This document shows positions 1,922 through 27,076 of a stretch of DNA of 36,833 nucleotides, piece after piece. Where the stretch lies: assembly GCA_964469835.1 (NCBI GenBank), contig CAYYBI010000397.1:1-36833 (forward strand). Direction: 5' to 3'. The position numbers and the translations under genes are program-made. Within the stretch, counting starts at the first letter, position 1, and each line of letters begins with the position of its first letter. The notes beneath the pieces were generated by a model. That model saw nothing but the letters and a program-made list of their open reading frames with translations. It made no database searches and had not been told where the DNA came from. The DNA comes from an uncultured Rhodospirillaceae bacterium (GTDB taxonomy: Bacteria > Pseudomonadota > Alphaproteobacteria > UBA8366).

Positions 1922-1951
1922 GAAGCTCGGTGCTCTTGCATTCGGTAGATT

Positions 1952-7024: not shown

Positions 7025-7091
7025 TATCCTGGCCGGATGACGGATCCTTAACGGCAACCGTCATCCGGCCAATATTTTGGGGGTTTCGGGC

Positions 7092-7754
7092 ATGGCTAAC
7101 GACACGGGCGCCATTCAGGGCGCGCTCCGGATATTGGCGCGTGTCAGCACGCACGCGGAACGATTTTCGCGCTACACCGTCTGGGCCGGCGGGGTGTTGA
7201 TGCTGATCGCCGCCGTCGTGGTCACGCTCGACGTGTTGCAACGAAAAGTCAGCCATCTGACTGGGCTGAGCATTTCCGGATCGGATGAAATCTCCGGCTA
7301 TTTGTTCGCAATTAGCACGTCCTGGGCCTTTTCCTTTGCCCTGTTGCATCGCGCCAATGTCAGGGTCGATGCCCTGTATCTGGTCTTGCCGCGTCGAATT
7401 CGCGCGGTGCTCGATGTCTTTGGAATTATTCTCCTCAGCATATTCGTCGCCGTCGTCACCTGGCACGCGCTGCAAATGTTCATACATAACGCGACGAACT
7501 GGTCCAAATCGATCACGCCACTTCTCACGCCGCTCGCGATCCCTCAGTTCTTCTGGATCATCGGCCTCATTCTCTTTTCCTTGAACCTCTTGCTGGTCCT
7601 GCTGCGGGCAGGCCTTGCGCTGACCGTCGGCGATTTAGCCACGGTGAGTAATGTCGCCGGCGCCCGTACCCAACAGGAAGAACTCGAGGAAGAATTGCGG
7701 TCCCTGCATATCGATGTGACGACCGACGGACCCACGCCCGGCAAGGACCGCTGA
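7092..7754 (+). CDS. TRAP transporter small permease (DctQ family)
   Basis: Hydrophobic four-helix-type protein between the DctP and DctM genes. The track start at 7077 is TTG. I prefer ATG 7092 (MANDTGAIQGALRIL...), which follows a G-rich SD-like stretch. Confidence 0.8.
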   Translation: MANDTGAIQGALRILARVSTHAERFSRYTVWAGGVLMLIAAVVVTLDVLQRKVSHLTGLSISGSDEISGYLFAISTSWAFSFALLHRANVRVDALYLVLPRRIRAVLDVFGIILLSIFVAVVTWHALQMFIHNATNWSKSITPLLTPLAIPQFFWIIGLILFSLNLLLVLLRAGLALTVGDLATVSNVAGARTQQEELEEELRSLHIDVTTDGPTPGKDR

Positions 7755-7755
7755 A

Positions 7756-9060
7756 ATGCTCGCCAACACCCTTATTATTCTGCTCGTGCTGATTGCACTG
7801 AGCGTGCCGGTCGCCGCGGTTCTCGGTATCTTGAGCCTGATCCTCGCCGATGTGTATTCGCCGATGCCGGTGACCCGGGCCATCGGTGAATCCTTCTGGC
7901 AATACGGCGCCGATTCGATCCTCGTCGCAATTCCCATGTTCATCCTGCTCGGTGAAATCCTGCTGCGATCCGGTATTACGCAGCGCATGTACGACGCTTT
8001 GGCGCAGTGGCTGTCCTGGCTGCCCGGCGGGCTGATGCATTCCAATATCGGCTCCTGCGCCATGTTCGCCGCGACCTCGGGCTCCAGCGTGGCGACGGCG
8101 GCGACCGTCAGCACGGTCGCCCTGCCGGAAATCGACCGCCGCGGTTATAACGAACGCCTGTTCGTCGGCACGCTCGCCGCCGGGGGAACGCTCGGGATTC
8201 TGATTCCGCCATCGATCAACCTGATCATCTATGGCCTGCTGACCGACACCTCGGTGCCGCAACTCTATCTGGCCGGTCTTGTGCCCGGCATCATCCTGTC
8301 GTCGCTGTTCATGCTGACGGTCATCGCCGGCTGCTTGTGGAAACCGGAATGGGGCGGCGAGCCAATCGCGACAAGCTGGAAAAAGCGGTTCGGCGTGCTG
8401 CCCGACCTGCTTCCGCCGATGTGCATTTTTGCCGTCGTCGTCGGCTCGATCTACGCCGGCCTCGCGACGCCGACCGAAGCGGCATCGCTCGGCGTGATCG
8501 CCGCGCTTGGACTCGCCGCCTATTACGGCACGCTCAAGGTCGACATGCTGCGGTCCGCGATTGAAGGCACGATGACGACGACGGCAATGGTCATGCTGAT
8601 CATCCTGGCGGCAATCTTCCTGAATTTCGTCCTCGCGGTAACCGGCATGACCGCCCTGCTGACCGGGTTCATCAAGGGGTTGGGGTTGGGGCCCTACAAC
8701 ACCCTGATGGTCATCATCCTATTTTATCTGATCCTGGGCTGCTTCATGGAGACATTCTCCATGCTGATTACTACGGCGCCGTTGATCGTCCCGATCGTCG
8801 CTTCGCTCGACCTTGGCATTGGCGACGATCACACGGTCAAAATCTGGTTCGGCATCCTGCTGACGGTGCTTTTGGAAGCCGCCTTGATTACCCCGCCGAT
8901 CGGCGTAAATCTTTACGTAGTGCAAGGCGTCCGGCAACGCGGCACGATGAACGACGTGATAATCGGCACGCTGCCTTTTGTTGCCTCCATGTTCGTCATG
9001 ATTGTCCTGATCGTGGTGTACCCGCAGATCGCGCTATGGCTGCCGAAACTATTTTATTGA
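7756..9060 (+). CDS. TRAP transporter large permease (DctM family)
   Basis: 434-aa polytopic membrane protein. ATG lies 1 nt after the dctQ stop. Typical DctM sequence (MLANTLIILLVLIALSVPVAAVLG...). Confidence 0.9.
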   Translation: MLANTLIILLVLIALSVPVAAVLGILSLILADVYSPMPVTRAIGESFWQYGADSILVAIPMFILLGEILLRSGITQRMYDALAQWLSWLPGGLMHSNIGSCAMFAATSGSSVATAATVSTVALPEIDRRGYNERLFVGTLAAGGTLGILIPPSINLIIYGLLTDTSVPQLYLAGLVPGIILSSLFMLTVIAGCLWKPEWGGEPIATSWKKRFGVLPDLLPPMCIFAVVVGSIYAGLATPTEAASLGVIAALGLAAYYGTLKVDMLRSAIEGTMTTTAMVMLIILAAIFLNFVLAVTGMTALLTGFIKGLGLGPYNTLMVIILFYLILGCFMETFSMLITTAPLIVPIVASLDLGIGDDHTVKIWFGILLTVLLEAALITPPIGVNLYVVQGVRQRGTMNDVIIGTLPFVASMFVMIVLIVVYPQIALWLPKLFY

Positions 9061-9579
9061 GATAATTCGGACGCGCGGCCTGTAATTAGGTCAGGGAAGC
9101 GCAACTATTTCGGCGCCGGAATAATGCGCCGGCAATAAGCCCGGTTCACGTTGCGGTGAACGCGATACAGCGCGTCGCGCAAAGCGATTCGCAAAACATC
9201 ACTTTAAAAACCAAACGATGATGCACATGAGTGTTACAGAATGGCGACATGTTGTCGCAGACGCGGTAGAGGAATTTTGAGTCGCGTTTGGAAAAGGTTA
9301 TGCCGAATTGTCGAACGCCGATTCGGCGCCGGGTTCAAATTTCGGTCTTGAAGACTTTGCAGAGTCTTTCACATAATTGTGTGTTAGTCTTACCAATACT
9401 GCTAAATAGAAATGAAAAGTTTGGCTAACATTGTCGAATGGGTAAGCTAATCTTAATTAAATTAGGCTTAGGCTTCGTCATACAACGGAACGCACAACCA
9501 AAAAAATCCACGGGAGAACTGACGATGCAGGTGCACACGAGAACGTAAATACGATCAACTAGTCGGAAAGGTGACCGCT

Positions 9580-11514
9580 ATGGATCTCTTCGATGTTTTT
9601 TCCGAAGTCTATGCACGGGAAAGGCAAGAGGATATCGGCTTGCAAGACTATCTTCTGAGCTGCCGAGATAATCCTGCCATGTTTGCCAGCGCCGCAGAGC
9701 GAATGGTCGCGGCAATTGGTGAGCCTGAATTGATCGACACCAGTACCGACCCGCGGCTTGGCCGCATCTGTATGAACCGCACGATCAAGCGGTACCCCGC
9801 ATTCAGCGAATTTTACGGCATGGAAGACACGATCGAACGGATCGTGGGCTATTTCCGTTATGCCGCGCAGGGCCTCGAGGAACGGAAGCAGATACTCTAT
9901 CTGCTGGGTCCCGTCGGCGGCGGCAAATCGACGCTTGCCGAGCGCCTCAAACAGCTCATGGAGCTTTCCCCTGTCTATGTCTTGAAGGCAGGTGAAGAAA
10001 TCAGCCCGGTTTTTGAATCACCGCTCGGTATGTTCAACCCGGATCGCATGGGCGATCTGCTCGAGGACAAATACGGCATCCCCCAGCGCCGGCTCACCGG
10101 CTTGGCGTCCCCTTGGGCAATCAAGCGGCTGGACGAGTTCGACGGCGACCTAAGCCGGTTCTCGGTGGTCCGCCTGATGCCGTCCAAGCTGCGGCAAATC
10201 TGCATCGCCAAAACGGAACCAGGCGATGAGAACAATCAGGATATCTCCTCGCTCGTCGGCAAGGTGGACATCCGCAAGCTCGAACATTTCAGCCAACACG
10301 ACCCGGACGCCTACAGCTATTCGGGCAGCCTGAACCGGACGACGCAGGGATTGCTAGAATTCGTCGAAATGTTCAAGGCGCCGATCAAGGTGCTGCATCC
10401 GCTGCTTACCGCGACACAGGAAGGCAACTATATCGGCACCGAATCGCTCGGTGGCATTCCGTATCAGGGCATCATCCTGGCCCATTCAAACGAATCCGAA
10501 TGGCAGCAGTTCAAGCAGAACAAGAACAATGAAGCGTTCCTAGACCGGCTTTGCGTGGTTAAGGTTCCGTATTGCCTCCGGGTTACCGAAGAAACCCAGA
10601 TCTACGAAAAACTGCTGCGCGAAAGCGAATTGTCCAAATCTTCGTGCGCCCCCGAAACGCTCAAGACACTGGCCCGCTTCAGCGTCTTGACGCGCCTCAA
10701 GGAACACGAAAATTCAAATCTCCACACTAAGATGCGGATCTATGACGGCGAGAACCTGAAAGATACGGGTCCGCAAGTGAAGACGATGCAGGAATACCGC
10801 GACACCGCCGGTGTCGATGAGGGCATGACGGGCGTAAGCACCCGGTTCGCCTTTAAGGTCCTGTCGGAAACCTTCAACTACGACACTGAAGAAGTCGCGG
10901 CCGATCCTGTGCATCTGATGTACATCATTGAAAATTCGGTAAAGCGCGAGCAATTCCCGGAAGACCAGCAGAACGCGTATCTGGAATTCATCAAAACCGA
11001 TTTGGCGCCGAAATACGCCGAATTCATCGGCAACGAAATTCAGAAGGCCTATCTCGAATCGTATACCGAATACGGTCAGAATTTGTTCGACCGCTACATC
11101 ACCTATGCCGACGCCTGGATCGAAGAGCAATCCTTCAAGGATCCCGACACCGGTCAGATGTTCGACCGGGAAATTCTCGAGGAAGAGCTGTCCAAGATCG
11201 AGAAGCCGGCCGGCGTCACCAACGCCAAGGATTTCCGCAACGAAGTGGTCAAGTTCGCATTGCGCGCGCGGGCCAAGAATGACGGCAAGAACCCGGACTG
11301 GACGAGTTACGAGAAACTGCGCGAAGTCATCGAGAAACGCATGTTCAGCAATGTCGAAGACCTGCTGCCGGTGATCAGTTTCGGGACCAAGCAGGACTCC
11401 GAGTCGGACGGCAAGCACAATGAGTTTGTCCGGCGCATGACGGGCCGCGGCTATACTGAACGCCAGGTGCGTCGCCTCGTCGAGTGGTACATGCGGGTCA
11501 ACAAGGCCGGCTGA
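9580..11514 (+). CDS. prkA: PrkA family serine protein kinase (YeaG-like)
   Basis: About 644 aa with Walker A LLGPVGGGKST and PrkA-type sequence throughout. The track start at 9571 is GTG. ATG 9580 sits at better distance from GGAAAGG. Confidence 0.92.
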   Translation: MDLFDVFSEVYARERQEDIGLQDYLLSCRDNPAMFASAAERMVAAIGEPELIDTSTDPRLGRICMNRTIKRYPAFSEFYGMEDTIERIVGYFRYAAQGLEERKQILYLLGPVGGGKSTLAERLKQLMELSPVYVLKAGEEISPVFESPLGMFNPDRMGDLLEDKYGIPQRRLTGLASPWAIKRLDEFDGDLSRFSVVRLMPSKLRQICIAKTEPGDENNQDISSLVGKVDIRKLEHFSQHDPDAYSYSGSLNRTTQGLLEFVEMFKAPIKVLHPLLTATQEGNYIGTESLGGIPYQGIILAHSNESEWQQFKQNKNNEAFLDRLCVVKVPYCLRVTEETQIYEKLLRESELSKSSCAPETLKTLARFSVLTRLKEHENSNLHTKMRIYDGENLKDTGPQVKTMQEYRDTAGVDEGMTGVSTRFAFKVLSETFNYDTEEVAADPVHLMYIIENSVKREQFPEDQQNAYLEFIKTDLAPKYAEFIGNEIQKAYLESYTEYGQNLFDRYITYADAWIEEQSFKDPDTGQMFDREILEEELSKIEKPAGVTNAKDFRNEVVKFALRARAKNDGKNPDWTSYEKLREVIEKRMFSNVEDLLPVISFGTKQDSESDGKHNEFVRRMTGRGYTERQVRRLVEWYMRVNKAG

Positions 11515-11533
11515 CGCCGGCCTTGTAATCGTC

Positions 11534-12847
11534 ATGCGACATTTCGTCGATCGCCGTCTGAATCCGAAGGACAAGAACCTCGGCAACCGGCAAAAGTTCA
11601 TGCGCCGGGCGCGGGAGCAGATCAAGAAGGTCGTCGACGATTCGATAAAAGGCCGCAGCATTACGAATGTCGACGAGGGCGAGACCATCTCGATCCCGAC
11701 CAAGGGGATCAACGAACCTCGCTTTCAGAATTCGCGCGATGGCGGTTTCCGCAAACGGGTCTTTTCCGGCAACAAGGACTTCAACACCGGCGACAAGATC
11801 GAAAAACCGCAGCAGGGCGGCGGAGGCGATGGCGGCAAGAAGGCGTCCGATGCCGGCGAAGGCGAAGACGAATTCACCTTCGAGCTCTCGCGTGAAGAAT
11901 TCCTCGATATTTATTTCGAAGATCTCGAACTGCCGGATTTGGTCAAAAAGGATTTGCGCGAAATCAAGTCCTTCTCATACCAGCGCGCGGGGTTCAGCCT
12001 CACCGGCACGCCGAATCAGATTTCGGTCCGACGCACCATCCGGAACAGTTTCGGGCGCCGGATTGCGCTGCAGCGGCCCAGCAATACCGATATCAACGAT
12101 CTGGAAGTTGAAATCAACGACATCGAGCTGCACGGTCCGCAGTCGGATCACGATCTGGTCCGGCTCGATCTGCTGAAACAGAAATGGCACGAGCTGTTCG
12201 TCTCGCGCCGCGGCATCCCCTATCTCGACCCGGTGGACATCCGCTATAAGCGGCTTGAAAAGCGGCCGCGGCCGAATACCAAAGCGGTCATGTTCTGCCT
12301 GATGGACGTATCGGGGTCGATGGGCGAACGCGAAAAGGAATTGGCGAAACGCTTCTTCATCCTGCTGCACCTTTTCCTCAAGCGCCGCTATGAGCAAACC
12401 GACATCGTCTTCATCCGTCATACCCATGAAGCCAGCGAAGTCGACGAAGAGACGTTCTTTTACAGCCGTGAGAGCGGCGGTACGGTCGTGAGCACCGCGC
12501 TGACCGAAATGCTCAAGGTGCAAAAGGACCGTTACCCGGCCGATAGCTGGAACATCTATGCCGCCCAGGCGTCGGACGGCGACAATTTTCCCGACGACGG
12601 CGACAAATGCATCAATATGCTGGGCAAGGAAATCATGCCGCTTTGCCAGTATTTCGCCTATGTGGAGATTGTGGACGAGCGCGAACTCGATATGTTCCAG
12701 ACGACATCCGTCGGCGCAGAGCTGTGGCAATCCTATCGGGCGGTGAAGGAAAACTGGCCGAACTTCGAAATGAAGCATATCGCCAGGCCGGGTGATATCT
12801 ATCCTGTCTTCCGGGAGTTGTTTACCAAGCAGCCGGCGGCGACTTGA
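11534..12847 (+). CDS. yeaH: YeaH/YhbH family protein (DUF444)
   Basis: 437 aa with the Gly-rich acidic linker QQGGGGDGGKKASDAGEGEDEF and the C-terminal vWA-like segment FCLMDVSGSMGE. Canonical position after prkA. Confidence 0.9.
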   Translation: MRHFVDRRLNPKDKNLGNRQKFMRRAREQIKKVVDDSIKGRSITNVDEGETISIPTKGINEPRFQNSRDGGFRKRVFSGNKDFNTGDKIEKPQQGGGGDGGKKASDAGEGEDEFTFELSREEFLDIYFEDLELPDLVKKDLREIKSFSYQRAGFSLTGTPNQISVRRTIRNSFGRRIALQRPSNTDINDLEVEINDIELHGPQSDHDLVRLDLLKQKWHELFVSRRGIPYLDPVDIRYKRLEKRPRPNTKAVMFCLMDVSGSMGEREKELAKRFFILLHLFLKRRYEQTDIVFIRHTHEASEVDEETFFYSRESGGTVVSTALTEMLKVQKDRYPADSWNIYAAQASDGDNFPDDGDKCINMLGKEIMPLCQYFAYVEIVDERELDMFQTTSVGAELWQSYRAVKENWPNFEMKHIARPGDIYPVFRELFTKQPAAT

Positions 12848-12886
12848 TGGTCGACGGATGACCAGGACCACCGGAGCGGAGGCATA

Positions 12887-14419
12887 ATGTCGGCAGAACT
12901 CGCGACCAAGCCCCTGTTCGAGGGTACCGAATGGACCTTCGATATACTCGACAAAACCTACAATGCGATCGAGGAAATCGCGTTGGAGGAATTGGGCCTC
13001 GATACCTACCCGAATCAAATCGAAATCATTTCCGCCGAACAGATGCTGGACGCGCATTCATCGGTCGGCATGCCGTTGATGTATCACCATTGGTCGTTCG
13101 GCAAGCACTTCGTGCAGGAGGAAAAATCCTATCGCAAAGGCTTTTCGGGATTGGCCTATGAGATCGTCATCAACTCCAATCCCTGCATCAGCTACAACAT
13201 GGAACAAAACAGCATGCCGATCCAAACGCTGGTGATGGCGCATGCTGCATTCGGCCACAATCATTTCTTCAAGAACAATTATCTGTTTCAACAATGGACC
13301 GATGCCGAAGGCGTTCTCGACTATCTCGACTACACCAAAAAATTTGTCGCGCGCTGCGAAGAGGAGTTCGGCATCGCCGCGGTCGAAGAGATCCTCGATG
13401 CGGCGCACGCGTTGATGGATCACGCCGTCTCGCGATACCCACGCCCACGAGAGTTGACCAAAAAGGAACGCGCCGCCCGCGAACAAGAACACCGGGACTA
13501 TGAGGAAAAATCCTTCAATGACCTGTGGCGCACCGTGCCGACCGCCAAACCGGAGGAGGCGCCGGACGCCGCCGAGGAGGATGCCTCGGAGCGCATGCGC
13601 GAACTGAAGCTGCCGGAAGAAAACCTGCTCTACTTCATCGAACGCCACAGCCCGGTACTCCTGCCATGGCAGCGGCAACTTCTCGGCATCGTCGGGTATG
13701 TGGCGCAATATTTTTACCCGCAGAAACAAACCAAAGTGATGAATGAAGGCTGCGCCACCTTCGTGCACCACTACATCCTGAACCGCTTGTTCGATAAAGG
13801 GCTGATCACCGAGGGCGCGATGCTGGAGGTCCTGCACAGCCATTCCAGCGTGGTCTATCAGCCGGAATTCGACCAACCCGGTTATCGGGGCGCAAACCCC
13901 TATGCCTTGGGATTCGGAATGATGCAGGATATCAAGCGCATCTGCACGGAACCGAAACCCGAGGATGAAGAATGGTTCCCGGAGATTGCAGGACGCGGCA
14001 ATTGGCAGGAGGTGCTGCGCGACGCCTGGGCCAACTATCGCGATGAATCCTTTATCCGGCAATTCCTGAGCCCGAACATGATCCGGCAATTGCGCCTGTT
14101 CACCCTGGCGGACGAGTCCAATGACCCGCATTACATGGTAACCGCGATTCACAACGACGCGGGCTATCGAAGGGTCCGGGAAACGCTCGCGGAATCCTAC
14201 GATATCGGTACCATAGAACCCGATATTCAGATCATCGATGCCGACCTGCGCGGCAACCGTGAATTGCGGTTGCAGCACACGATGACCAACAAGATCCCGC
14301 TCTCCGAGAAGATGCGCGACGAAGTCCTGAAGCATGTGCGCGTGCTTTGGGGCTATGACGTCAGCTTAGTCGGCGTCGAAAGTGACGGCAGCAAGGTCTA
14401 CGAAACAAAAGTCTCCTGA
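12887..14419 (+). CDS. ycgB: SpoVR family protein (YcgB-like)
   Basis: 510 aa. Third member of the conserved prkA-yeaH-ycgB trio. Typical segments AYEIVINSNPCISYNMEQNS and VMAHAAFGHNHFFKNN. Confidence 0.9.
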   Translation: MSAELATKPLFEGTEWTFDILDKTYNAIEEIALEELGLDTYPNQIEIISAEQMLDAHSSVGMPLMYHHWSFGKHFVQEEKSYRKGFSGLAYEIVINSNPCISYNMEQNSMPIQTLVMAHAAFGHNHFFKNNYLFQQWTDAEGVLDYLDYTKKFVARCEEEFGIAAVEEILDAAHALMDHAVSRYPRPRELTKKERAAREQEHRDYEEKSFNDLWRTVPTAKPEEAPDAAEEDASERMRELKLPEENLLYFIERHSPVLLPWQRQLLGIVGYVAQYFYPQKQTKVMNEGCATFVHHYILNRLFDKGLITEGAMLEVLHSHSSVVYQPEFDQPGYRGANPYALGFGMMQDIKRICTEPKPEDEEWFPEIAGRGNWQEVLRDAWANYRDESFIRQFLSPNMIRQLRLFTLADESNDPHYMVTAIHNDAGYRRVRETLAESYDIGTIEPDIQIIDADLRGNRELRLQHTMTNKIPLSEKMRDEVLKHVRVLWGYDVSLVGVESDGSKVYETKVS

Positions 14420-15848: not shown

Positions 15849-17903
15849 ATGAGCATCCGGGCGCCCGAGGGAAAAGACGCGGTGGCGGAGATTGCCCGCC
15901 ACCGCCAACTCCCTGGCCTATGGCACAAAATCCTGTTGATTGCCTCGTGTCTGGCGATTGTGTTGTCCGCCTATCAGCTTTTTAACGTCGGAAGCATGTT
16001 TTCCGATGCCGGATTTCTCGGTGGCATCCCGCTGAAATTCAGCCAGGCGGTCGGTTTCAGTTTCAATCTCCTGCCGGAACAATATCTCTTCTGGCTACTG
16101 TTTCTTCTGCTGCCATTGGTGTTCATCTTCTGGCCGGCCCACAAACGAGCGCCCAAAGACAGCGTCCCGTGGTACGATCTCGTGCTGTTTGTCGTGACCG
16201 CCGGCGTTTCGCTCTACTTCGTCTATTACGGCGGCCGCATTCTCGACGAAGGCTGGGAATATGAAGTACCCGACGACGCGAGCGAAGCCAGGTATCTCAC
16301 CTATGTCCTCTGGGCGCTGGTGATCGACGCAACCCGGCGCGCGGGCGGCCTGCCGATCGCCAGCATCGTCATGCTCTTCTCGATCTATCCTTTCTTCGCC
16401 GATCAATTGCCCGGAATACTGCTCGCGTCCTCGCCGGAATGGACGGAAATCGGCAACCGCATGGTCATGAGCACCGAGGCCATCTTCGGCATTCCGATGC
16501 GGGCATTTGGCACGCTCGTTATCGGGTTTCTGATTTTCGGCGTCGCCCTGCAGCATACCGGCGGCGGAAGCTTCTTCCTCAACCTCGCCTTTTCGCTACT
16601 GGGGCACGTTCGGGGCGGCCCTGCCAAGGTAGCAATTTTCGCAAGCGGGCTGATGGGCTCGATGAGTGGCAGCGTCATCACCAACGTGCTGACCACCGGC
16701 GTAATGACGATCCCCACCATGAAGCGGGTCGGTTTCCGACCGGCCTATGCCGGTGGGGTCGAAACCTGCGCGTCGACCGGCGGCGTGCTGATGCCGCCGA
16801 TCATGGGCGCCACCGCCTTCGTGATGGCCCTGTTCCTGGAGGTTCCTTATCGCGACGTCGCCATTGCGGCCGTCATTCCATCGGTCATGTATTTCTTTGG
16901 CCTGTTCATGCAGATCGATGCCTACTCGGCGCGCAACGACCTGAAAGGCCTGCCGCCGGAGGAAATGCCGAATCTGAAGCAGACCCTGAAAGAAGGCTGG
17001 TACTTCATCGCCGTCTTCGTCCTGCTCATCTGGATGCTCGTTTTCCTGAACCAGGAAACCATCGCCCCCTACTTCGCCACCGTTCTGCTGCTGATCCTGA
17101 ACCAGGTCTTTCCCTATCATCGCTGGACCAAGGCCGATTTCTGGACCTTCATCGAATCGGTCGGCAAGCTGTTCGCCGAACTCGCCGCCCTGCTGGCCGG
17201 GATCGGGATTATCGTGGGCGCGCTGATCATCACTGGCAAGATCGGCAACCTCGCCAGCGACCTGCTACAATTGGCCGGCGGCTCGACGATCATCCTGCTG
17301 CTGATGGGCGCCTTCACCAGCTTCATTCTCGGCATCGGCATGACCGTCACCGCGGCGTACGTCTTCCTCGCCATCGCGCTCGCCCCCGCCCTGATCAAGG
17401 GCGGACTGGACCCCATGGCCGTGCATATGTTCATTTTCTACTGGGGTATGTTGAGTTTCATTACACCGCCCGTGGCGCTGGGCGCCTATGCGGCCGCCCC
17501 CATCGCCAAGGCCCCGCCGATCAAGACCGGGCTGGAGGCGATGCGGCTCGGTAGCATCATCTATTTCATTCCCTTCTTCTTCGTTTTCGACCCGGCCTTT
17601 ATCTGGCGCGGACCGATCGAAATGACCCTGTTTCTGTTCGCGCAGGCTATGGTCGGCATCGTCTTTGTCGCAGGCGCGTTACAGGGCTTTTTGGTTTTCG
17701 TCGGATGGATGAGCAACCGGCCGGCCGGATTGATCGGTCGTGCGCTTATCGGCATCGGCGGAATCGCGCTCGCCATGCCGGGAAACAAGATCATCGACGT
17801 CACCAACGGCGAACTGGCGATCTGGGCCGCCGTGCTGATTTTAGTCGGTGTCGTCGTAGCCCTGCTCGATCGGCGCAGTGCCGTGGTCGAAGCAGCGAAC
17901 TAG
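15849..17903 (+). CDS. TRAP transporter fused permease (4TM/12TM, TAXI-associated)
   Basis: 684-aa highly hydrophobic protein directly downstream of the TAXI receptor gene. Confidence 0.9.
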   Translation: MSIRAPEGKDAVAEIARHRQLPGLWHKILLIASCLAIVLSAYQLFNVGSMFSDAGFLGGIPLKFSQAVGFSFNLLPEQYLFWLLFLLLPLVFIFWPAHKRAPKDSVPWYDLVLFVVTAGVSLYFVYYGGRILDEGWEYEVPDDASEARYLTYVLWALVIDATRRAGGLPIASIVMLFSIYPFFADQLPGILLASSPEWTEIGNRMVMSTEAIFGIPMRAFGTLVIGFLIFGVALQHTGGGSFFLNLAFSLLGHVRGGPAKVAIFASGLMGSMSGSVITNVLTTGVMTIPTMKRVGFRPAYAGGVETCASTGGVLMPPIMGATAFVMALFLEVPYRDVAIAAVIPSVMYFFGLFMQIDAYSARNDLKGLPPEEMPNLKQTLKEGWYFIAVFVLLIWMLVFLNQETIAPYFATVLLLILNQVFPYHRWTKADFWTFIESVGKLFAELAALLAGIGIIVGALIITGKIGNLASDLLQLAGGSTIILLLMGAFTSFILGIGMTVTAAYVFLAIALAPALIKGGLDPMAVHMFIFYWGMLSFITPPVALGAYAAAPIAKAPPIKTGLEAMRLGSIIYFIPFFFVFDPAFIWRGPIEMTLFLFAQAMVGIVFVAGALQGFLVFVGWMSNRPAGLIGRALIGIGGIALAMPGNKIIDVTNGELAIWAAVLILVGVVVALLDRRSAVVEAAN

Positions 17904-17915
17904 TGCCCCCGCCGC

Positions 17916-18668
17916 TTAGCCGCGCGGGAATTGAAGGATCAGCATTTCCAAGCCGTCCTCCCCCGCCACCGCCCGCGGCGCGGGTTCATCGGGGGTGACG
18001 TAGCGGCAGGATAGCTCCGGCATCGCCACATCGTCGTGGATCAACGTTCCTTTCACCACGACATGATACTGGCCGCCGCCCGAAGACGGATCGGGGCACT
18101 GCGCGGCCTGCCCGCCGCCAACCCGCAGGATGTAGGCGACAAGCCCGTCCGCATCCGCTTCCATGACGGTTTCCAACGCGGCCTTACCGCGGTTCCGCAG
18201 CGTACCGGCATCGCTCACCGACACTTCGTCCGAAAGCCGGTGGCGGCGTGGCCCATCCGGCAGTATGTCGCGGGACTCCGGCATATATTTCGCCCCGGAA
18301 TCCCAAAGCTGGCGCAGGGTGAAGTACTGCACACCATCTGCTCCGGCGGCAATCGGTCCGTATGGTGTATTGCCGCCCGCATAGTGAACGGTCACGGGAA
18401 AGGCCTCTTTCTTGCCCATTTGTCCGCTGCCGCCCACGAAGACCTGAAACTGATTGGTGTTGTGAAAATGCGGCGGCGTCACGCTGCCGGGCGGCTGTTC
18501 GACCAGGAATCCTTGCGGCAGATCGTTGGCATTGGCCTCGTTACCGGCAACGTACCGGCCGCGCGTCGGCGCCGTGCCGATAAATTCACTCAACACATAA
18601 TCATGGCCGTTCACATGAACGATCCGTTGATGAGTCCGGGCCTCGGGCGTGGACCGTGCCAGCAGCAT
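17916..18668 (-). CDS. Cupin-fold hypothetical protein
   Basis: ORF 17916..18689. I prefer the internal ATG 18668 (MLLARSTPE...), which lies 6 nt after AGGAG. The cupin-like metal motif is GSVTPPHFHNTNQFQVFVGGSG. No precise family can be assigned by eye. Confidence 0.6.
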   Translation of the reverse strand: MLLARSTPEARTHQRIVHVNGHDYVLSEFIGTAPTRGRYVAGNEANANDLPQGFLVEQPPGSVTPPHFHNTNQFQVFVGGSGQMGKKEAFPVTVHYAGGNTPYGPIAAGADGVQYFTLRQLWDSGAKYMPESRDILPDGPRRHRLSDEVSVSDAGTLRNRGKAALETVMEADADGLVAYILRVGGGQAAQCPDPSSGGGQYHVVVKGTLIHDDVAMPELSCRYVTPDEPAPRAVAGEDGLEMLILQFPRG

Positions 18669-18821
18669 GGCGGCTCCTATTTTCCACAAACAAAACGGCC
18701 GATCGACCGACGCGAACGACCAACAGATGCGATACTATCATCAGGCGTCGTCCGGACAAAAGTGCGGCAACTGTTTCTTCAAGGTTGCGGGCGATGAGTG
18801 TTCCCGTCGTAAAATTGCCAC

Positions 18822-19600: not shown

Positions 19601-19783
19601 CCCATTGCGCATCCGTGTTTTCGTCGCGTGGCGGGCGTACTTCCGCAATACCGAAAATTTCAAAGCCAGGGTTGGGAACAAGCCAGGTATGGGACACCCT
19701 TGATCCCACGCGCAATGCGCTATGATCTGGCAGCAATGGCATTTGAAACTTTGCCGATCAACAGCCAATCCGAAAGAGCGCGC

Positions 19784-21022
19784 ATGACCAATCCCAGCGA
19801 ACCGTCCAAGGCAGCGCCGCCCCCACTCGACGGTATTAAGGTGCTTGATTTCAGCCACGTGCTTGCGGGTCCGTGGGCGACGCTCAACCTTGCCGATCTC
19901 GGCGCCGAAATCATCAAGATCGAAACCCCCAAAGGGGGAGACGATTCCCGCAATTTCGAACGGGTGGAAGCGCTGCACGGCGAGTCCGCGTATTTTCCAT
20001 TCGTGAACCGAAACAAGCTCAGCCTTGCGCTCGATTTTTCAACGCCATCGGGATGCGCGGTGGCCAAAAAATTGGCAGCCGGTGTGGATATTCTGATTGA
20101 AAATTTTCGGCCCGGCGTCATGCAACGCCGCGGTCTCGATTACGACTCCCTGCACGTGCTCAATCCGGGTCTCATCTATTGCTCGATCTCGGGTTACGGC
20201 CACGACAGTCCGTATCGGGACCTGCCCGGCTACGATCCGGTGGCGCAAGCCGAGAGCGGCATGATGTCGTATAACGGCGAACCCGGCGGCGCCCCTTTGC
20301 GCACCGGCGTCTCCTACGGCGATATGTTTGCCGGCATGTATGCCTCACAGGCGATCCTCGCGGCCCTGCACGTGCGTGGCCGCGACGGGATGGGCCAGTT
20401 CATCGATATCGCGCTGCTGGACACCACCGTGGCAATGACCGCCAATCTCGCGCAACGATATTTCATCACCGGGGACAACGCCGAGCGGGTCGGCAACAGC
20501 CATCACTTCCTCGAACCAGTCTGCCTGTTCGACGCAAAGGACGGTCTGATCTCGCTGATTATCGGCAATGAGCGCCAATGGGAACGGTTCTGCAAAGACG
20601 TGATTGAACGCCCCGATTTGCTCGACGATCCGCGCTTCGCCACCAACGCCGACCGCATGCAGCACCGCGCGAAAACCCGCGAGCTGCTCGGCGCAATATT
20701 GCGTCGTGACACGAGGGCAAATTGGGTTCGCAAGTTCCGCAAGGCCGGCGTGCCGGCGGGTGCGGTGCGTGAGGTCGGCGAAGCGCTCACCAGCCCCGAA
20801 GTCGAGGCGCGCGGGTTGATCTACGAAGTGGCGCATCCGCTGGCCGGGTCCATCCAAGTGGTCGGGACGCCGATGCGGCTTTCGCGCACGCCAGCGGCCA
20901 AGCCTGCCCCGGCGCCGGCGCTCGGTCAGCAATCGGCCGAAATCCTGCGCCGCTTCGGCTATACCAACCGAGATATCGCGGCGCTTCGGGCCGACGGCGC
21001 CATTCCGGGCGGCGAGGAATAG
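19784..21022 (+). CDS. Family III CoA-transferase (CaiB/BaiF family)
   Basis: From ATG 19784: MTNPSEPSKAAPPPLDGIKVLDFSHVLAGPWATLNLADLGAEIIKIE..., the typical N-terminus of this family. The upstream extension to 19628 in the track is not protein-like. Confidence 0.9.
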   Translation: MTNPSEPSKAAPPPLDGIKVLDFSHVLAGPWATLNLADLGAEIIKIETPKGGDDSRNFERVEALHGESAYFPFVNRNKLSLALDFSTPSGCAVAKKLAAGVDILIENFRPGVMQRRGLDYDSLHVLNPGLIYCSISGYGHDSPYRDLPGYDPVAQAESGMMSYNGEPGGAPLRTGVSYGDMFAGMYASQAILAALHVRGRDGMGQFIDIALLDTTVAMTANLAQRYFITGDNAERVGNSHHFLEPVCLFDAKDGLISLIIGNERQWERFCKDVIERPDLLDDPRFATNADRMQHRAKTRELLGAILRRDTRANWVRKFRKAGVPAGAVREVGEALTSPEVEARGLIYEVAHPLAGSIQVVGTPMRLSRTPAAKPAPAPALGQQSAEILRRFGYTNRDIAALRADGAIPGGEE

Positions 21023-21106: not shown

Positions 21107-21595
21107 ATGCCATCGCCATCCGCCGACACGGTGCTGAAACGCCTACGCGACTTGGGCATTGACCTGCCTGACCCGGAAACCACCGTCTATGACTATATCC
21201 CGCTTTCGATACACAACCGGGTCGCCTATATGGCGGGGCAAATTCCCAAACGCCCGGGCGGATTGATCGCGGTCGGCAAGGCCGGCGATGAGGTTTCGCT
21301 AGAGCTCGCCCAGGAAGCCGCCCGCGTTTGTGTCGAACAAGCGCTTTCCTGGATCCACGCCAAGGCCGGCGGGGTCGACAAAGTGGAGCGTGTCTTACGC
21401 ATGGACTGCTATGTCGCCGCCGCCGAGGGTTTCGAGCAAATCTCCGATATCGCCGATGCAGCGTCGGGACTGCTGATCGCGCTGTACGGCGAGGCGGGCC
21501 GGCATCCCCGCTCGGTTATCGGCGTCTCCCGCCTGCCTCGCCAGTCGCCGGTGCTTCTCGAACTAACCTTCGCGCTCAAAAGGGATCCGGAATAA
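21107..21595 (+). CDS. RidA/YjgF-family protein
   Basis: 162 aa of YjgF/RidA-like architecture (AYMAGQIPK..., ...VIGVSRLPRQSPVLLELTFAL). Confidence 0.8.
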   Translation: MPSPSADTVLKRLRDLGIDLPDPETTVYDYIPLSIHNRVAYMAGQIPKRPGGLIAVGKAGDEVSLELAQEAARVCVEQALSWIHAKAGGVDKVERVLRMDCYVAAAEGFEQISDIADAASGLLIALYGEAGRHPRSVIGVSRLPRQSPVLLELTFALKRDPE

Positions 21596-21618: not shown

Positions 21619-22017
21619 TCAAGCCTTCGCCTTCCAGACCTTGGTCGCATAGTTCTCGTTCACGAGGTCGAACACCACGCCGTTGGGATCGCGATACTTC
21701 TGCTCCGTATCGGAGTGCTCCCGGCTGGGAATGCGCATGTGATATTTCGCGCCGTTGTCCGTGACGGCTTTGCCGGCTTCCTCCAGATCGTCGACGACAA
21801 AACCGATATGATGCAGTCCGAAGAAGTCCTTTCCCCGCTCATCCCCTGCGGTCTTGTCGTCGGGGAAGTTCAGGATTGCGAGGCTGACCGTCCCGTCGGA
21901 CAGCAGGACGCCGAATTTCGACTCGTAAACCCGCTCCATTTCGAAGGATTTTTGATAGAAGGCCGCGGTCGCTTCCGGATCCGGTACGGTAATCGCCACG
22001 TGTCGCAATTTCGCCAT
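21619..22017 (-). CDS. VOC family protein (glyoxalase/bleomycin-resistance/dioxygenase fold)
   Basis: MAKLRHVAITVPDPEATAAFYQKSFEM...GLHHIGFVVDDLEEA. ATG 22017 sits 9 nt after AAGGA. The track start at 22026 is the alternative. Last gene of the selenoprotein operon. Confidence 0.85.
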   Translation of the reverse strand: MAKLRHVAITVPDPEATAAFYQKSFEMERVYESKFGVLLSDGTVSLAILNFPDDKTAGDERGKDFFGLHHIGFVVDDLEEAGKAVTDNGAKYHMRIPSREHSDTEQKYRDPNGVVFDLVNENYATKVWKAKA

Positions 22018-22082
22018 GGATATCATCCTTTATGCAGTGAGCCCGATCCGATTATTCAGAGCCCGGACGTTCTGGTTGGTCG

Positions 22083-23189
22083 CTAGTTCAGTAAGTCCCG
22101 CACGGCGCCAAGCGGCGCGCCGTCTTTCCGCAGGATCGGTTTGGTGACGCTGAGATTATAGCTGGCGTTAAGAATCGCGTTCATGTGGCGGCCGGGACCG
22201 CCGGCAATCACGATCAAGATGTCCTCCGGCTTGGAGACGATCGGCGCCATGCAATCGTCATCGTCGAGATCGACACACGCTGCCATCGGTGTGGTTCCCC
22301 AACCGCCGCGATTACGCAGCTTGCCGACCGGCTGGCGCGCGGTTTCGAACAGATAGCGCCGAACATCCGCTTTGCTCCAGCCGCGCTCGTCAAGCCAATT
22401 TGCGGATTCGGCGGTCATCAGCAGCATCTGCTCGCTTTCCAGGCCGCTGCGGTAGAGGCTGTTCGCGCCGAGATGCGCCATCGCCGACGCGCCGCTGCCG
22501 AGATATAATTCCGGTGTCTCGCTCACCAGGTCGTTCACATTGTGCGGCGCCTCGCCGCAATAGAGCGTGACGGTACTGGTACCGGGATCGAAACCGCGGT
22601 CCCCGTGCAGCGGCGTCCAGGGACTGCCCTCTTCATCCTCGCCGAGGCAATAGCTGTATTTCCCGGGATGGCCATGGGTTGCCATATCGGTCACGCCGGG
22701 CACGCCGCCGCCGACATTGATCAACAGTAGCCGAAGCGCCCTGCCGATCGTGGCGTTGGCGCGAAAACCCTGGCCGAGGACGTTCCGATGGCAGTTGACG
22801 TCAAGCTCGTGCCGGACCGGCCCGTTTATGATGATCAGATGGGCGCCGGGATGCGTCGTGGTCTGCCGGCCATAGAGATTATATTGCGGTTCGGCCACCG
22901 CTTCGGTCGCCGCGATGAGCACCGGCAAAAATTCCGGCTTGCAGCCCGCCATGACCGCGCTAACGGCGATCTTCTCAACCGTCGCCGCGCCCCCCTTGGG
23001 CGGCAGTTCAACGACGGTCTCCTCCGGCGCACGATCGGTGTAGCGCAAGGTCTCTCCCACCAAATCCTCGGTCGGCGGGATGATGGGAAGTCCATCGGTC
23101 CAACCGTTTGCACAGAAATGCTCATAAACCGCATAAGGCGAGTCCGGAAGCTCGAGAAACTTCCCGTCGCTGTCCCGGGGGCCTGCCAT
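22083..23189 (-). CDS. Conserved-looking hypothetical protein (368 aa), partner of the UGSC selenoprotein
   Basis: Long ORF with gene-like codon bias. The probable start is ATG 23189 (MAGPRDSDGKFLELPDSPYAVYEHFCANGWTDGLPIIPPTEDL...), 7 nt after the upstream stop. I could not recognise a domain by eye. Confidence 0.7.
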   Translation of the reverse strand: MAGPRDSDGKFLELPDSPYAVYEHFCANGWTDGLPIIPPTEDLVGETLRYTDRAPEETVVELPPKGGAATVEKIAVSAVMAGCKPEFLPVLIAATEAVAEPQYNLYGRQTTTHPGAHLIIINGPVRHELDVNCHRNVLGQGFRANATIGRALRLLLINVGGGVPGVTDMATHGHPGKYSYCLGEDEEGSPWTPLHGDRGFDPGTSTVTLYCGEAPHNVNDLVSETPELYLGSGASAMAHLGANSLYRSGLESEQMLLMTAESANWLDERGWSKADVRRYLFETARQPVGKLRNRGGWGTTPMAACVDLDDDDCMAPIVSKPEDILIVIAGGPGRHMNAILNASYNLSVTKPILRKDGAPLGAVRDLLN

Positions 23190-23196
23190 GCCGATG

Positions 23197-23748
23197 CTAA
23201 GCCGGGTTGAGCAGTGAATCGACGATCGCGTCGGACGCGTCACGCGCGACACCGCGCACTTCATCGACGGGCCGCGCCGAAATAGGATGCGGAATGACGA
23301 TCAGCGGCAATGTCTCCATGCTTTGCAACTTGGTCAGCAGCCGGCCGTATTCGGCAAACACCGTGGTGACGATAGTGCCGGTCGCAATTCCTTCCCGTTC
23401 GAACGTCATGCTGTCATGGACACTCCACGACGTGCATGACCCTCAATCCCCGAGGGCAGTAACCACTCCATCGCAGTCGCTCTTGATCGCCGCGAACATC
23501 TCCGGCCGCGCGCCGCTGACGCTTTCTTTCCGGTAATGCCGCACCTCGACACCGGGGAAACGTTCCTTGAGGCGCGCCTCCACCACTTCAAAGATGATTT
23601 CTGTACGGTCCTTGGTGTTGTTAAGCAGGCCAATGACCTTACCATCGAGGCTATCAAAGCGGCGGGCCGGAGAATCCTGGTTGTCCGTTTCTTCGGCGGC
23701 GGGGTTATAGACACGCACCGTGCGCGTGTTCCGCGTGCTGCCATCCAT
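23197..23748 (-). CDS. UGSC-type selenoprotein (183 aa with selenocysteine at codon 102, encoded by TGA at 23445..23443)
   Basis: ATG 23748 lies 8 nt after GGAG. Track ORFs 23443..23988 and 23197..23409 share one frame and are joined by TGA GGG TCA TGC, which reads ...SDCDGVVTALGD-U-GSC-TSWSVHDSMTFEREGIATG... The 11 sense codons from GGG to AGC, between the TGA and the next ATG, keep gene-like third-position GC. A hairpin follows the TGA. Confidence 0.75.
23413..23440 (-). other. Candidate SECIS-like hairpin immediately 3' of the UGA codon
   Basis: The mRNA reads UGA GG-GUCAUG-CAC-GUCGUGGA-GUG-UC-CAUGAC. This gives a 6-bp lower stem, a 3-bp upper stem with a UC bulge, and an 8-nt G/U-rich loop. 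A second CAUGAC copy 3 nt further on offers an alternative pairing. Confidence 0.35.
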
Positions 23749-24006
23749 CGATCGATCTCCTATCTCGGCACCCGGTCGACCGGTGCCGGCGACGTCCGGC
23801 AAAAACCGAGCTTCTACACGGCAGTCTATATCGGCAAGAGAGATGATGTAACCCAGCCCCGTACCCGAGCACGACCGATCTGCAATCAGTAATACCTCGA
23901 CATCCATCGCAACTTGCCGGCGCAGGGACAGCACAATGCTGCGCGGCGACAACAAAGAGGCGCTCGAGACCGACCCTCGTTCAAGCATCTATCGCCGCTC
24001 GACAAC

Positions 24007-24180
24007 CTATCCGAAGTTTTTCGAACCGGAGCGAATCCGCGGTACCGTTCCCGATTTCGATTTATGGCAGCCGGATACCTCCGCGTGCTGGCCAGATTCC
24101 AGCACGCCCAAAAGCTTCTGCTTTGACTTCCGCCATTCCGATCCGGTCGCCAAGACCTCGACGCGGTCGACAGTCACCAT
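24007..24180 (-). CDS. Possible small protein (57 aa), very uncertain
   Basis: Part of track ORF 24007..24216. From the internal ATG: MVTVDRVEVLATGSEWRKSKQKLLGVLESGQHAEVSGCHKSKSGTVPRIRSGSKNFG. Third-position GC is about 70% by hand count, similar to neighbouring genes. There is no recognisable family and the SD is poor. Confidence 0.25.
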   Translation of the reverse strand: MVTVDRVEVLATGSEWRKSKQKLLGVLESGQHAEVSGCHKSKSGTVPRIRSGSKNFG

Positions 24181-24462
24181 CCTGATAACTTCGTCCTTGC
24201 AGAATATGTAAATCATAAATACCGCTAAAGCGGCCGCTTTTGTTAAAACAAACCCATAAATTATTCTTGAAAATACTATTTTATTACTTCGTTAATGCAA
24301 ATCACTGTTATCCCTTACATTAAAAATAACAAACTTACATAGATCTATATTCGAATTAGCCTGTCGCTATTTAGCCATTTCCGTACAACCCAACGGGCAC
24401 AAATACTGCAATCCGCTACAACGCCGGAGGCGCATTCACGTCAAGGACCCGAAACGGCGCGA

Positions 24463-24774
24463 TCACTTCTTTTCAGCTTCAACAATTGGCGCCGATGGTG
24501 GCCGGTCCCCGCGCCGCACGGCGGCGTTCCAGCACTCGACACAAACCGCATAGGTGCCAAAGGCTCCTCCATCCGACAAAATACCATGGTCACACAGTTG
24601 GCAGAATTGCCATGCGTGGCCATCCATCTCGACATATCTTTCGCGCGCACTGCCGATGACCTGCCCTTCATGGGCGGCGTGACACGTTGGATCGAGACAC
24701 ACGGCAGGACCAATTCTGCCCTTCCCGCAAACCAGGCAAATAGGAAAATAACCGTCTTCGTCCTGATTGCTCAT
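24463..24774 (-). CDS. Cysteine-rich small protein (103 aa, two 4-Cys clusters; putative zinc-binding)
   Basis: MSNQDEDGYFPICLVCGKGRIGPAVCLDPTCHAAHEG...FCQLCDHGILSDGGAFGTYAVCVECWN. Cys at positions 13, 16, 26, 31, 58, 61, 78 and 81. AGGGG SD-like motif and a TTGAAT-N17-TACATA promoter-like pair upstream on the minus strand. Confidence 0.6.
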   Translation of the reverse strand: MSNQDEDGYFPICLVCGKGRIGPAVCLDPTCHAAHEGQVIGSARERYVEMDGHAWQFCQLCDHGILSDGGAFGTYAVCVECWNAAVRRGDRPPSAPIVEAEKK

Positions 24775-25828: not shown

Positions 25829-27076
25829 CTACCGCGCTGGGCCGACACCCTTAATGTCGGCGTCGCTGCGAACCACGCCATCCGCCCGCAGTCTTTCGAT
25901 CTCGGACTCGTCATAACCGAGTGCGGACAATACCTCGGCGTTATGCTCTCCCACCGCCGGAGGCCGCCGCGGCGACACCTTGTCCTGGCCAAGCATAAAG
26001 ACAGGGGATCCGACGGTTCGCCGCACCGGCGCCTCCGGGTCGCCCACGGGAATCACGGCCCCCGCATCGGCGAAGACCCGGTCGTCCACCACGTCCTGCG
26101 GCCGATTGACGACACCGAAGGTGATGCCGTGTTGTTCCAAAACAAGCCGCCACTCCGCCCAATCCCGCTGCTTGAATTCTTCATCCAGAATCGCGATCAG
26201 GGCGCGCGCGTTTTGCCGGCGCAACGCCGTGGTCTTGAAACGATCGTCCGCCAGCAATTCCGCGCGGCCGATTCCGTGGAAGAATTTGTCCGCCTGCTTG
26301 TCTTCATTGACCATCGCCAGAATGAACCAACGGCCATCGCGGGTGGTGTAATGATTGGCCAGCGCGTTGAACCAATCATCGCGGTGCGGCCGCGGCGGGA
26401 TCTCCGCGCCCACCAACGCCGCCTGGATATAGAAGGTATTCCACCAGGCCCCATTGGCGACCAGCGAGGTCGAGACCTGGCTCCCCTCGCCGGTCCTTTC
26501 GCGGTGGTATAATCCCATCATGATCGCGCCGAACAGCGAGGCACCGGTCGGATGATCCCCCATGCCCGGCGTCGACCGGGTCGGTGCGAGTTCCGGGGCA
26601 CTCCGCAACAGGTCCATCAGGCCGCTGCGCGCCCAAAGCGCCGTCGAATCGAAGCCGGCCTTGTCAGCCTCCGCCCCCTGCTCCCCATAGGCGGTCATGG
26701 ACGCATAGATCAGCCGGGGATTGTAGGGCCGTAAATCTTCGTATCGCAGTTTCAGCTTTGCCCGCACCGGCAGCGGGAAATTGGTAATCAGCACATCCGC
26801 GTCTGCGACCAGCTTGTGCAGGATCTCCTGCCCAGCCGGTTGCTTGAGGTCGAGGCAGATTCCACGCTTGCTGCGATTATCCGCCATCCAGGAATAATCG
26901 AATTCCGCCCGCGGCATGCCGGGCCCCCGGTCGTAGGTTCGGTAGGGATCGCCGCCCGGCGCTTCGACCTTGATCACATCAGCGCCGAAATCGGCCATGA
27001 TCGTTCCCGCCACGGGCCCGGCGATATAACTCGCGATGTCCAGCACCCGCAATCCTTCGCACACCCGGCCTGTCAT
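25829..27076 (-). CDS. Family III CoA-transferase (CaiB/BaiF family)
   Basis: 415 aa. MTGRVCEGLRVLDIASYIAGPVAGTIMADFGADVIKVEAPGGDPYR..., the typical family III N-terminus. Confidence 0.9.
   Translation of the reverse strand: MTGRVCEGLRVLDIASYIAGPVAGTIMADFGADVIKVEAPGGDPYRTYDRGPGMPRAEFDYSWMADNRSKRGICLDLKQPAGQEILHKLVADADVLITNFPLPVRAKLKLRYEDLRPYNPRLIYASMTAYGEQGAEADKAGFDSTALWARSGLMDLLRSAPELAPTRSTPGMGDHPTGASLFGAIMMGLYHRERTGEGSQVSTSLVANGAWWNTFYIQAALVGAEIPPRPHRDDWFNALANHYTTRDGRWFILAMVNEDKQADKFFHGIGRAELLADDRFKTTALRRQNARALIAILDEEFKQRDWAEWRLVLEQHGITFGVVNRPQDVVDDRVFADAGAVIPVGDPEAPVRRTVGSPVFMLGQDKVSPRRPPAVGEHNAEVLSALGYDESEIERLRADGVVRSDADIKGVGPAR

Follow-up and report, generated by a model that had tools for sequence, protein, structure and literature searches.

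The subject of this analysis is a pair of adjacent genes on the minus strand of contig CAYYBI010000397.1, a stretch of 36,833 nucleotides (nt) from an uncultured Rhodospirillaceae bacterium that is referred to below as the window. The first is a complete gene of the UGSC family at 23197..23748, which contains an in-frame TGA codon. The second, at 22083..23189, starts 7 nt past the stop codon of the first and encodes a conserved protein of 368 amino acids (aa) that we call the partner. When open reading frames (ORFs) are collected mechanically, the UGSC gene appears in two pieces. ORF 23443..23988 closes with the TGA at 23445..23443, and ORF 23197..23409 lies in the same frame with its ATG as the twelfth codon past that TGA; the codons directly 3′ of the TGA (23442..23434) are GGG TCA TGC, which encode G-S-C. 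An initial annotation had combined both ORFs into one gene for a selenoprotein with the motif U-G-S-C, in which U is selenocysteine (Sec). Translation reproduced all of its elements, namely the position of the TGA, the three codons that follow it, the 12-codon offset and the common frame.

The gene consists of 183 codons followed by a TAG at 23199..23197, and the TGA at 23443..23445, which is read as Sec (U102) and occupies the Sec/Cys column of the family, is codon 102. A Shine-Dalgarno-like AGGAG at 23757..23761 places GGAG 8 nt before ATG 23748. The remaining 80 codons of the mechanical ORF, at 23749..23988, are a non-coding 5′ extension outside the gene: homologues start at a Met that matches 23748, and the DNA upstream of this ATG shows only patchy conservation with that of the closest relative, L001. 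The close homologues that gene finders report in the protein collection have a length of 100-101 aa and run from MDGST... to ...GD. These limits confirm ATG 23748 as the start, as proposed initially along with the ribosome binding site and the length of the protein, and they show that members of the family are cut short by gene callers at the TGA. Downstream of the TGA, sequence and homologue alignment identify GGG TCA TGC (23434..23442) as the rest of the U-G-S-C (UxxC) redox motif. The coding part 3′ of the Sec codon comprises 81 codons (23197..23442), recognized by its substitution pattern and by the continuity of the frame, and is miscalled as the separate 70-aa ORF 23197..23409. The splitting or truncation that had been foreseen for standard gene callers was found in every public relative examined; this gene, like each of its close relatives in public data, is split into a pair of "hypothetical" ORFs, one of 101 aa and one of 70 aa. 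The correct protein is obtained when both are joined, and it marks the source as an organism that probably uses selenium. The tryptic peptide that spans the Sec site is SDCDGVVTALGD-U-GSCTSWSVHDSMTFER.

Family membership and the reading frame across the TGA

For profile searches, the U of the joined protein was replaced by C. The NCBIfam equivalog NF041046, "UGSC family (seleno)protein", matched with 131.7 bits against a cut-off of 125 (E = 2e-38), aligning residues 35-179 to profile positions 1-146 of 147. Pfam PF24696, "UGSC family", matched with 153.8 bits against a cut-off of 25, aligning residues 13-179 to profile positions 2-170 of 172. Both scores are above the curated cut-offs, and the family name given initially is correct. 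A single hidden Markov model (HMM) covers both halves of the joined 183-aa protein across the TGA, in line with the proposal that the two ORFs are one gene. The best relative in the genome collection, L001, comes from an alphaproteobacterial metagenome-assembled genome (MAG; GCA_041557595.1) and shares 93% identity with the window copy.

The "UGSC-containing protein" was described as a selenoprotein of unknown function in Hyphomonas neptunium and ocean metagenomes (PMC1976440). The Global Ocean Sampling (GOS) survey reported its UxxC motif, 255 Sec forms versus 21 Cys forms, a relatively higher frequency in non-marine samples (PMC2398784) and one fusion to a domain named Unknown_1 (PMC2398784, Fig. 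S1A). A 2016 survey found UGSC in 26 sequenced bacteria (PMC5029168), and reviews from 2022 and 2026 list it without a function (PMC9312934 and PMC13188914), the latter citing NF041046. The finding made in the window is correct but not novel, since the gene is a member of a curated family documented from 2007 on, and it amounts to the rediscovery of a known family. With that family (NF041046/PF24696; Zhang and Gladyshev) the window gene shares the full-length score, the U-G-S-C column, a length of about 180 aa and a hairpin of the bacterial selenocysteine insertion sequence (bSECIS) type. The split between Proteobacteria, with Sec forms, and Actinobacteria, with Cys forms, is likewise the same, and the gene differs from the family in nothing essential.

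A scan of one genome per species provided 80 related loci for comparison. The column of the window TGA is occupied by TGA in 42 loci and by a Cys codon (TGC or TGT) in the other 38, and the expectation that homologues would align a Cys or Sec to this codon was thereby borne out. The TGA loci belong to Alpha- and Betaproteobacteria, Dehalococcoidia and other Chloroflexota, Eremiobacterota, Methylomirabilota, Binatia, a Geopsychrobacteraceae MAG and one MAG labelled Streptomycetaceae, and all the loci with a Cys codon are from Actinobacteria. Full-length Cys homologues, most of them actinobacterial, are single proteins of 178-185 aa that read ...GD-C-GSC... at the TGA column. Beyond every TGA examined, the frame stays open, reading GSC[TS]SWSV[HR]D..., and closes with a normal stop some 80 codons further on. 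The ratio of nonsynonymous to synonymous substitution rates (dN/dS) in the segment past the TGA, calculated between the window and a relative, was 0.04 for L013, 0.14 for L005 and 0.16 for L014, values that indicate purifying selection. The 11 codons between the TGA and the downstream ATG are conserved in frame as well.

These comparisons bear on the explanation in which the TGA is a true stop that separates two independent small genes of 101 aa and 70 aa, or that marks a pseudogene originated by a nonsense mutation or a sequencing error. Mechanical calling does produce two ORFs, every public annotation of the relatives lists two genes, and there is an ATG 12 codons past the TGA. Nonetheless, several Sec-type homologues have no Met at the start of the second ORF (for example, ...HDTIELE and ...HDGIHVE), and the two-gene reading fails for this reason. 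It is also at odds with the in-frame conservation of the 11 intervening codons, with the low dN/dS of the segment, with the Cys-type homologues being single proteins, with the HMM that covers both halves and with the identical column of the TGA in 42 loci of several phyla. The homologues are continuous across this point and do not consist of the separate N- and C-terminal proteins that the initial annotation had named as evidence contrary to its proposal. The explanation is effectively refuted, and we regard it as extremely improbable.

Recurrence of the TGA at the same column, together with the fact that it is the only internal stop in the 28 genes of the window, is more than chance would produce. 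A change of genetic code is not involved, since TGA is the normal stop of 13 of these 28 genes. A list of 68 TGA-joined ORF pairs was compiled to cover the window for further selenoprotein genes, and none of them but UGSC looks real; those in which the GC content at third codon positions (GC3) is high on both sides consist of neighbouring genes in a common frame.

Some loci showed taxonomic oddities. The MAG labelled Streptomycetaceae, L049, has UGSC genes of the Sec type, in contrast to the Cys type of all other Actinobacteria. Two MAGs labelled "uncultured Enterobacteriaceae" (L039 and L040) carry Sec-type genes that are nearly identical to the gene of a Binatia MAG, L041. These cases could be due to mis-binning or horizontal transfer.

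The hairpin downstream of the TGA and the decoding of the codon

A SECIS-type hairpin lies at 23399..23446 on the minus strand, as determined by minimum free energy (MFE) folding, covariation and the bSECIS criteria. A spacer of 11 nt separates the UGA from an upper stem of 8 bp, in which 23431..23424 pairs with 23420..23413. The apical loop, GUG (23423..23421), is 19 nt from the UGA, and the lower stem reaches down to 23440/23405, or as far as 23446/23399 in the MFE fold. Counted from the UGA, a segment of 74 nt has an MFE of -31.5 kcal/mol (z = -3.59), and 0 of 200 shuffled sequences fold as well. The published bSECIS model (PMC13188914) specifies a loop of 3-9 nt, an upper stem of 4-16 bp, a distance of 16-37 nt between UGA and loop, and an MFE of at most -7.5 kcal/mol, with a G within the first two loop positions, usually G followed by G or U. 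All four limits accommodate the window hairpin, which has a 3-nt loop with G-U, an 8-bp stem, a spacing of 19 nt and an energy of -27.9 to -31.5 kcal/mol.

Compensatory changes maintain the pairing among relatives, and only in those genes that have the TGA. In 26 distinct Sec-type sequences, 91.5% of the positions of the 14-bp hairpin are paired and 6 pairs are changed on both sides; 0 of 500 shuffles reached the observed values, and registers slid along the alignment gave at most 54% pairing. The upper stem was also analyzed in 41 sequences, a set that includes paralogues in which the region encodes other peptides (SACSVHD, SSGSLLD, ISCSLHD and SAASVAD). Pairing in this set was 94.2% with 20 compensatory cells, again unmatched in 500 shuffles, and slid controls gave at most 55.5%. 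In the loop, the U never varies, and 39 of the 41 sequences have the G. Folding also distinguishes the two forms of the gene: the mean z was -2.46 for the 26 Sec-type genes versus +0.58 for 35 distinct Cys-type genes (Mann-Whitney p = 8e-10), and in the latter this segment is no more stable than shuffled sequence. Energy, covariation and the published criteria agree that the SECIS-type hairpin sought after the TGA is present. Like the consensus bacterial SECIS (the bSECISearch model, with E. coli fdhF as its prototype), it is located within the coding region directly 3′ of the UGA, and it shares with that consensus the 3-nt G-U loop, the 8-bp stem, the 19-nt spacing and an MFE far under -7.5 kcal/mol. 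Its primary sequence is unrelated to that of the fdhF element, and its binding by SelB is predicted.

Five independent lines of evidence (alignment column, reading frame, SECIS element, covariation and genetic code) identify the TGA at codon 102 as a selenocysteine codon. Following the established route of bacterial Sec decoding, a complex of SelB, GTP and Sec-tRNA(Sec) would bind the hairpin on the translating mRNA and insert Sec at UGA102, generating U-G-S-C. A different possibility is that the UGA is read through without Sec, for example by near-cognate insertion of Trp or Cys or by stimulation from the hairpin, in an organism that lacks Sec machinery. Stable hairpins 3′ of stop codons can generally promote read-through, and no Sec machinery was found in the window. 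We nevertheless consider this very improbable. The gene belongs to a curated selenoprotein family with Sec/Cys pairs (NF041046; PMC2398784), the hairpin conforms to the bSECIS constraints with G-U in the loop at a fixed distance in 39 of 41 sequences, and TGA forms occur in lineages documented to have UGSC selenoproteins, such as Hyphomonas neptunium (PMC1976440).

The partner gene and the predicted function of the pair

A homologue of the 368-aa partner adjoins UGSC in 80 of the 80 loci, as detected by tblastn. It is mostly downstream of UGSC, and upstream in some Chloroflexota and Methylomirabilota. Relatives with quite different flanking genes always have the split UGSC gene followed by the partner, and the gene next to an actinobacterial Cys-type gene encodes a protein 39% identical to the window partner. 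Identity between the partners of Alpha- and Betaproteobacteria is at least 60%. The family is large, with at least 7,000 clusters at 90% identity among the matches listed and 6,296 representatives at the level of 50%-identity clusters, 1,813 of them at E ≤ 1e-30. The partner matched no Pfam or NCBIfam family, even at permissive thresholds with 35 family members included in the Pfam scan. Permissive Pfam scans of these 35 proteins and of 32 UGSC family members did not return any recurring remote family.

In part of the family, the partner is fused to other domains. Among the best 150 partner-family representatives, 73 are at least 400 aa long, and 51 of these 73 carry a UGSC domain, in both orders; many begin just past the TGA. 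The other fusions are to the catalytic domain of ferredoxin:thioredoxin reductase (2 of 73), to a thioredoxin-reductase-like flavoprotein with a CAVCD motif (1 of 73) and to an AhpC/Redoxin/thioredoxin-like domain (1 of 73). All the extra domains are thiol-redox machinery. Natural UGSC-partner fusions were recovered as P0127, P0196 and P0199.

Two further arrangements were observed in the loci. In L036 and L060, the segment past the TGA continues into the partner as a single ORF, of 459 and 444 codons, respectively, and these genes are Sec-type fusions. Several genomes have at least two paralogous UGSC-partner pairs within 10 kb, each pair with its own TGA and hairpin; second sites were recorded in L020, L030, L036 and L051.

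Conservation of the partner was assessed in 51 diverse members that are 37-48% identical to the window protein. Two Cys residues, C83 (NAVMAGC-PEY) and C181 (GKY--C-(A/G)E-E), are at least 90% conserved, and the same holds for D32, R143, N145 and W191. Two further residues, R150 and E184, do not vary at all. The AlphaFold2 model of the partner has a mean predicted local distance difference test score (pLDDT) of 86.9 and a predicted template modeling (TM) score of 0.88. Loops 107-112, with the motif TTTHPG, and 167-173, with TDMATHG, are highly conserved and of low pLDDT; they may be active-site or processing loops. Foldseek searches of the PDB with this model returned class I fumarate hydratase as the best match at a TM score of about 0.27, and lower matches to selenophosphate synthetase/ThiL/HypE and RidA-like folds at 0.1-0.2, none of which is meaningful. 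Sequence searches of the PDB with the UGSC profile, the partner sequence and a diverse partner profile gave matches at chance level only.

The UGSC protein was modeled with AlphaFold2 on a natural Cys-form homologue, P0047 (pLDDT 87.4). The model has five strand-helix units, with the C/U-G-S-C motif located between strand 89-95 and helix 98-113, and its best Foldseek matches in the PDB are flavodoxin-like, with TM scores of 0.4-0.5. The predicted fold is therefore a flavodoxin-like alternation of strands and helices. A thioredoxin fold (beta-alpha-beta-alpha-beta-beta-alpha), the type suggested for the family in PMC2398784, finds no support in the predicted model, given its five strand-helix units and the nature of its PDB matches. 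Since the motif is at the N-terminus of a helix, the local redox geometry may still resemble that of the thioredoxin fold.

Adjacency to the partner in all loci, the fusions to UGSC and the rare fusions to thiol-redox domains suggest a two-subunit selenol/thiol redox enzyme. In the mechanism that we propose, Sec102 and Cys105 would cycle between the selenol/thiol and selenenylsulfide states, UGSC would be the small redox subunit and the 368-aa partner the substrate-binding subunit of an oxidoreductase that depends on selenol/thiol chemistry, and the oxidized U-x-x-C would be re-reduced by a thioredoxin-type reductase system. We hold these three elements jointly with moderate confidence, at about even chances. 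The substrate is probably a small molecule, and the partner is probably the catalytic subunit.

Another reading, suggested in the 2008 GOS paper, is that a true UGSC selenoprotein acts as a stand-alone thioredoxin-like thiol oxidoreductase, to which the partner would be only loosely related in function. In its favour are the presence of UxxC, a motif typical of thiol oxidoreductases, and the label "likely Trx-like fold" that the family was given in that paper (PMC2398784). The predicted fold is, however, flavodoxin-like, and its best PDB matches are flavodoxins, not thioredoxins. Furthermore, the partner adjoins UGSC whatever the flanking genes are, and the two are fused in both orders, which is unusual for a general-purpose redox carrier. 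We judge the stand-alone role unlikely and favor the two-subunit enzyme.

The two-subunit enzyme has a parallel in glycine reductase and D-proline reductase (GrdA/GrdB and PrdB), which are alike in principle in that a small Sec subunit with a UxxC-type motif works with a separate substrate-binding subunit. In the Grd system, the Sec subunit is re-reduced by a thiol system. PrdB is listed among the proteins with UxxC (PMC2398784, Table 2). Neither GrdE nor PrdA is similar to the partner, in which no site for pyruvoyl formation was recognized; the likeness is one of analogy and not of membership. Pfam GRDB (PF07355) did not match the window protein at E ≤ 1 or any of 32 UGSC family members at E ≤ 10. 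A more specific proposal can be offered tentatively, and we think it somewhat more apt to be wrong than right: UGSC and the partner could form a widespread, unrecognized two-subunit selenoenzyme, a reductase like glycine or proline reductase on a different fold, which would be recycled by thioredoxin-type reductases and act on a small organic substrate imported by nearby TctC, tripartite ATP-independent periplasmic (TRAP) or ATP-binding cassette (ABC) systems.

The fusion UGSC/Unknown_1 of the GOS survey (PMC2398784) and the window locus both link UGSC to a conserved domain of unknown function. The two are fused in the GOS protein, whereas in the window they are separate genes 7 nt apart. Unknown_1 is probably the 368-aa partner.

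Several observations weigh against the interpretation of the locus as a selenoprotein gene with a redox partner. Domains of selA, selB and selD and any tRNA are absent from the 36.8-kb window, and neither tRNA-Sec nor Sec-machinery genes were found in 37 related loci; the capacity of the source organism to decode Sec is assumed. Rfam returned no RNA family in the whole window at the gathering threshold or in 23150-23800 at a permissive one, a result to be expected given the sequence diversity of bacterial SECIS elements. The hairpin largely overlaps the strongly conserved codons of SWSV[HR]D, and part of its conservation is consequently driven by the protein. The redox-enzyme model draws solely on gene adjacency and domain fusions. 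Those fusions that involve domains like thioredoxin reductase, ferredoxin:thioredoxin reductase or peroxiredoxin are rare (4 of 73 long representatives), and family, PDB sequence and PDB fold searches detected no relative of known function for the partner. Some full fusions have degenerate UGSC domains, with HCGAS in P0196 (second Cys lost) and WSGV in P0204 (both redox residues lost). The redox couple is thus not universal in the wider family, and these degenerate domains are possibly purely structural. Even with these points taken into account, a single UGSC-family selenoprotein gene at 23197..23748, with its SECIS element, is in our view the best explanation of the whole, and we hold it with high confidence; the partner-based redox model is part of this explanation at moderate confidence.

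The analysis leaves a corrected gene model and, as a functional lead, the UGSC-partner module with its thiol-redox fusions. The strict pairing of UGSC with one unannotated 368-aa family, together with the rare disulfide-reductase- and peroxiredoxin-like fusions, makes that lead testable.

Neighbouring genes and other features of the window

Clustering of the neighbourhoods of the 80 loci did not reveal a universal third gene. The neighbours are lineage-specific and include TctC, TRAP or ABC uptake components, dehydrogenases, coenzyme A (CoA) ligases or transferases, IclR regulators and paralogues of the partner. In the window, the UGSC-partner pair is flanked by two family III CoA-transferases, at 19628-21022 (plus strand) and 25829-27076 (minus strand), a RidA/YjgF-like protein at 21107-21595 (plus strand) and a glyoxalase/VOC-family protein at 21619-22026 (minus strand). 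TRAP transporter genes are located at a greater distance, at 5960-9060 and 15849-17903. A neighbourhood for the catabolism of small carboxylates would fit these surroundings. Synteny with L001 covers the region upstream of UGSC, where both have an ORF of 102-103 aa, a CBS-BON gene and a CoA-transferase gene, and it ends right past the partner gene.

The ORF of 103 aa at 24463-24774 (minus strand) is rich in Cys, with several CxxC-like pairs, and matched no family in Pfam or NCBIfam. A gene of 102 aa occupies its position in L001 and L002, and it is absent in L005 and in Betaproteobacteria, which places this ORF outside the conserved UGSC-partner unit.

The gap of 714 nt upstream of the UGSC gene includes an AT-rich stretch at 24150-24420, with a GC content of about 0.33 versus 0.60 for the window. 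The stretch is absent from L001, whose gap measures about 147 nt, and it may be an insertion. The AT-rich region has a terminator-like hairpin at 24234..24221 and an ORF of 69 aa at 24007..24216, both on the minus strand. Closer to the gene, a block at 23780-23870 on the same strand, GGGTTACATC...GCCGATATAGACTG, is kept in L001 (9900-9990) while the DNA that flanks it is not, and it could be a promoter or operator. A scan for the sigma-70 consensus found nothing in this block, and a promoter and terminator scan around the UGSC-partner operon returned nothing above the shuffled expectation.

Elsewhere in the window, ORFs of 200-257 aa without a Pfam match are present at 521-1213 and 1346-1948 (plus strand) and at 17916-18689 (minus strand). 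The first two have a coding-like GC3 of 0.70-0.74 and a common frame across a TGA; they are separated by an intergenic gap, and for this reason they are not a candidate for read-through. Three adjacent genes with strong Pfam matches, unrelated to UGSC, extend over 9571-14419 on the plus strand and encode PrkA (AAA and kinase domains), a DUF444 protein and a SpoVR-like protein.

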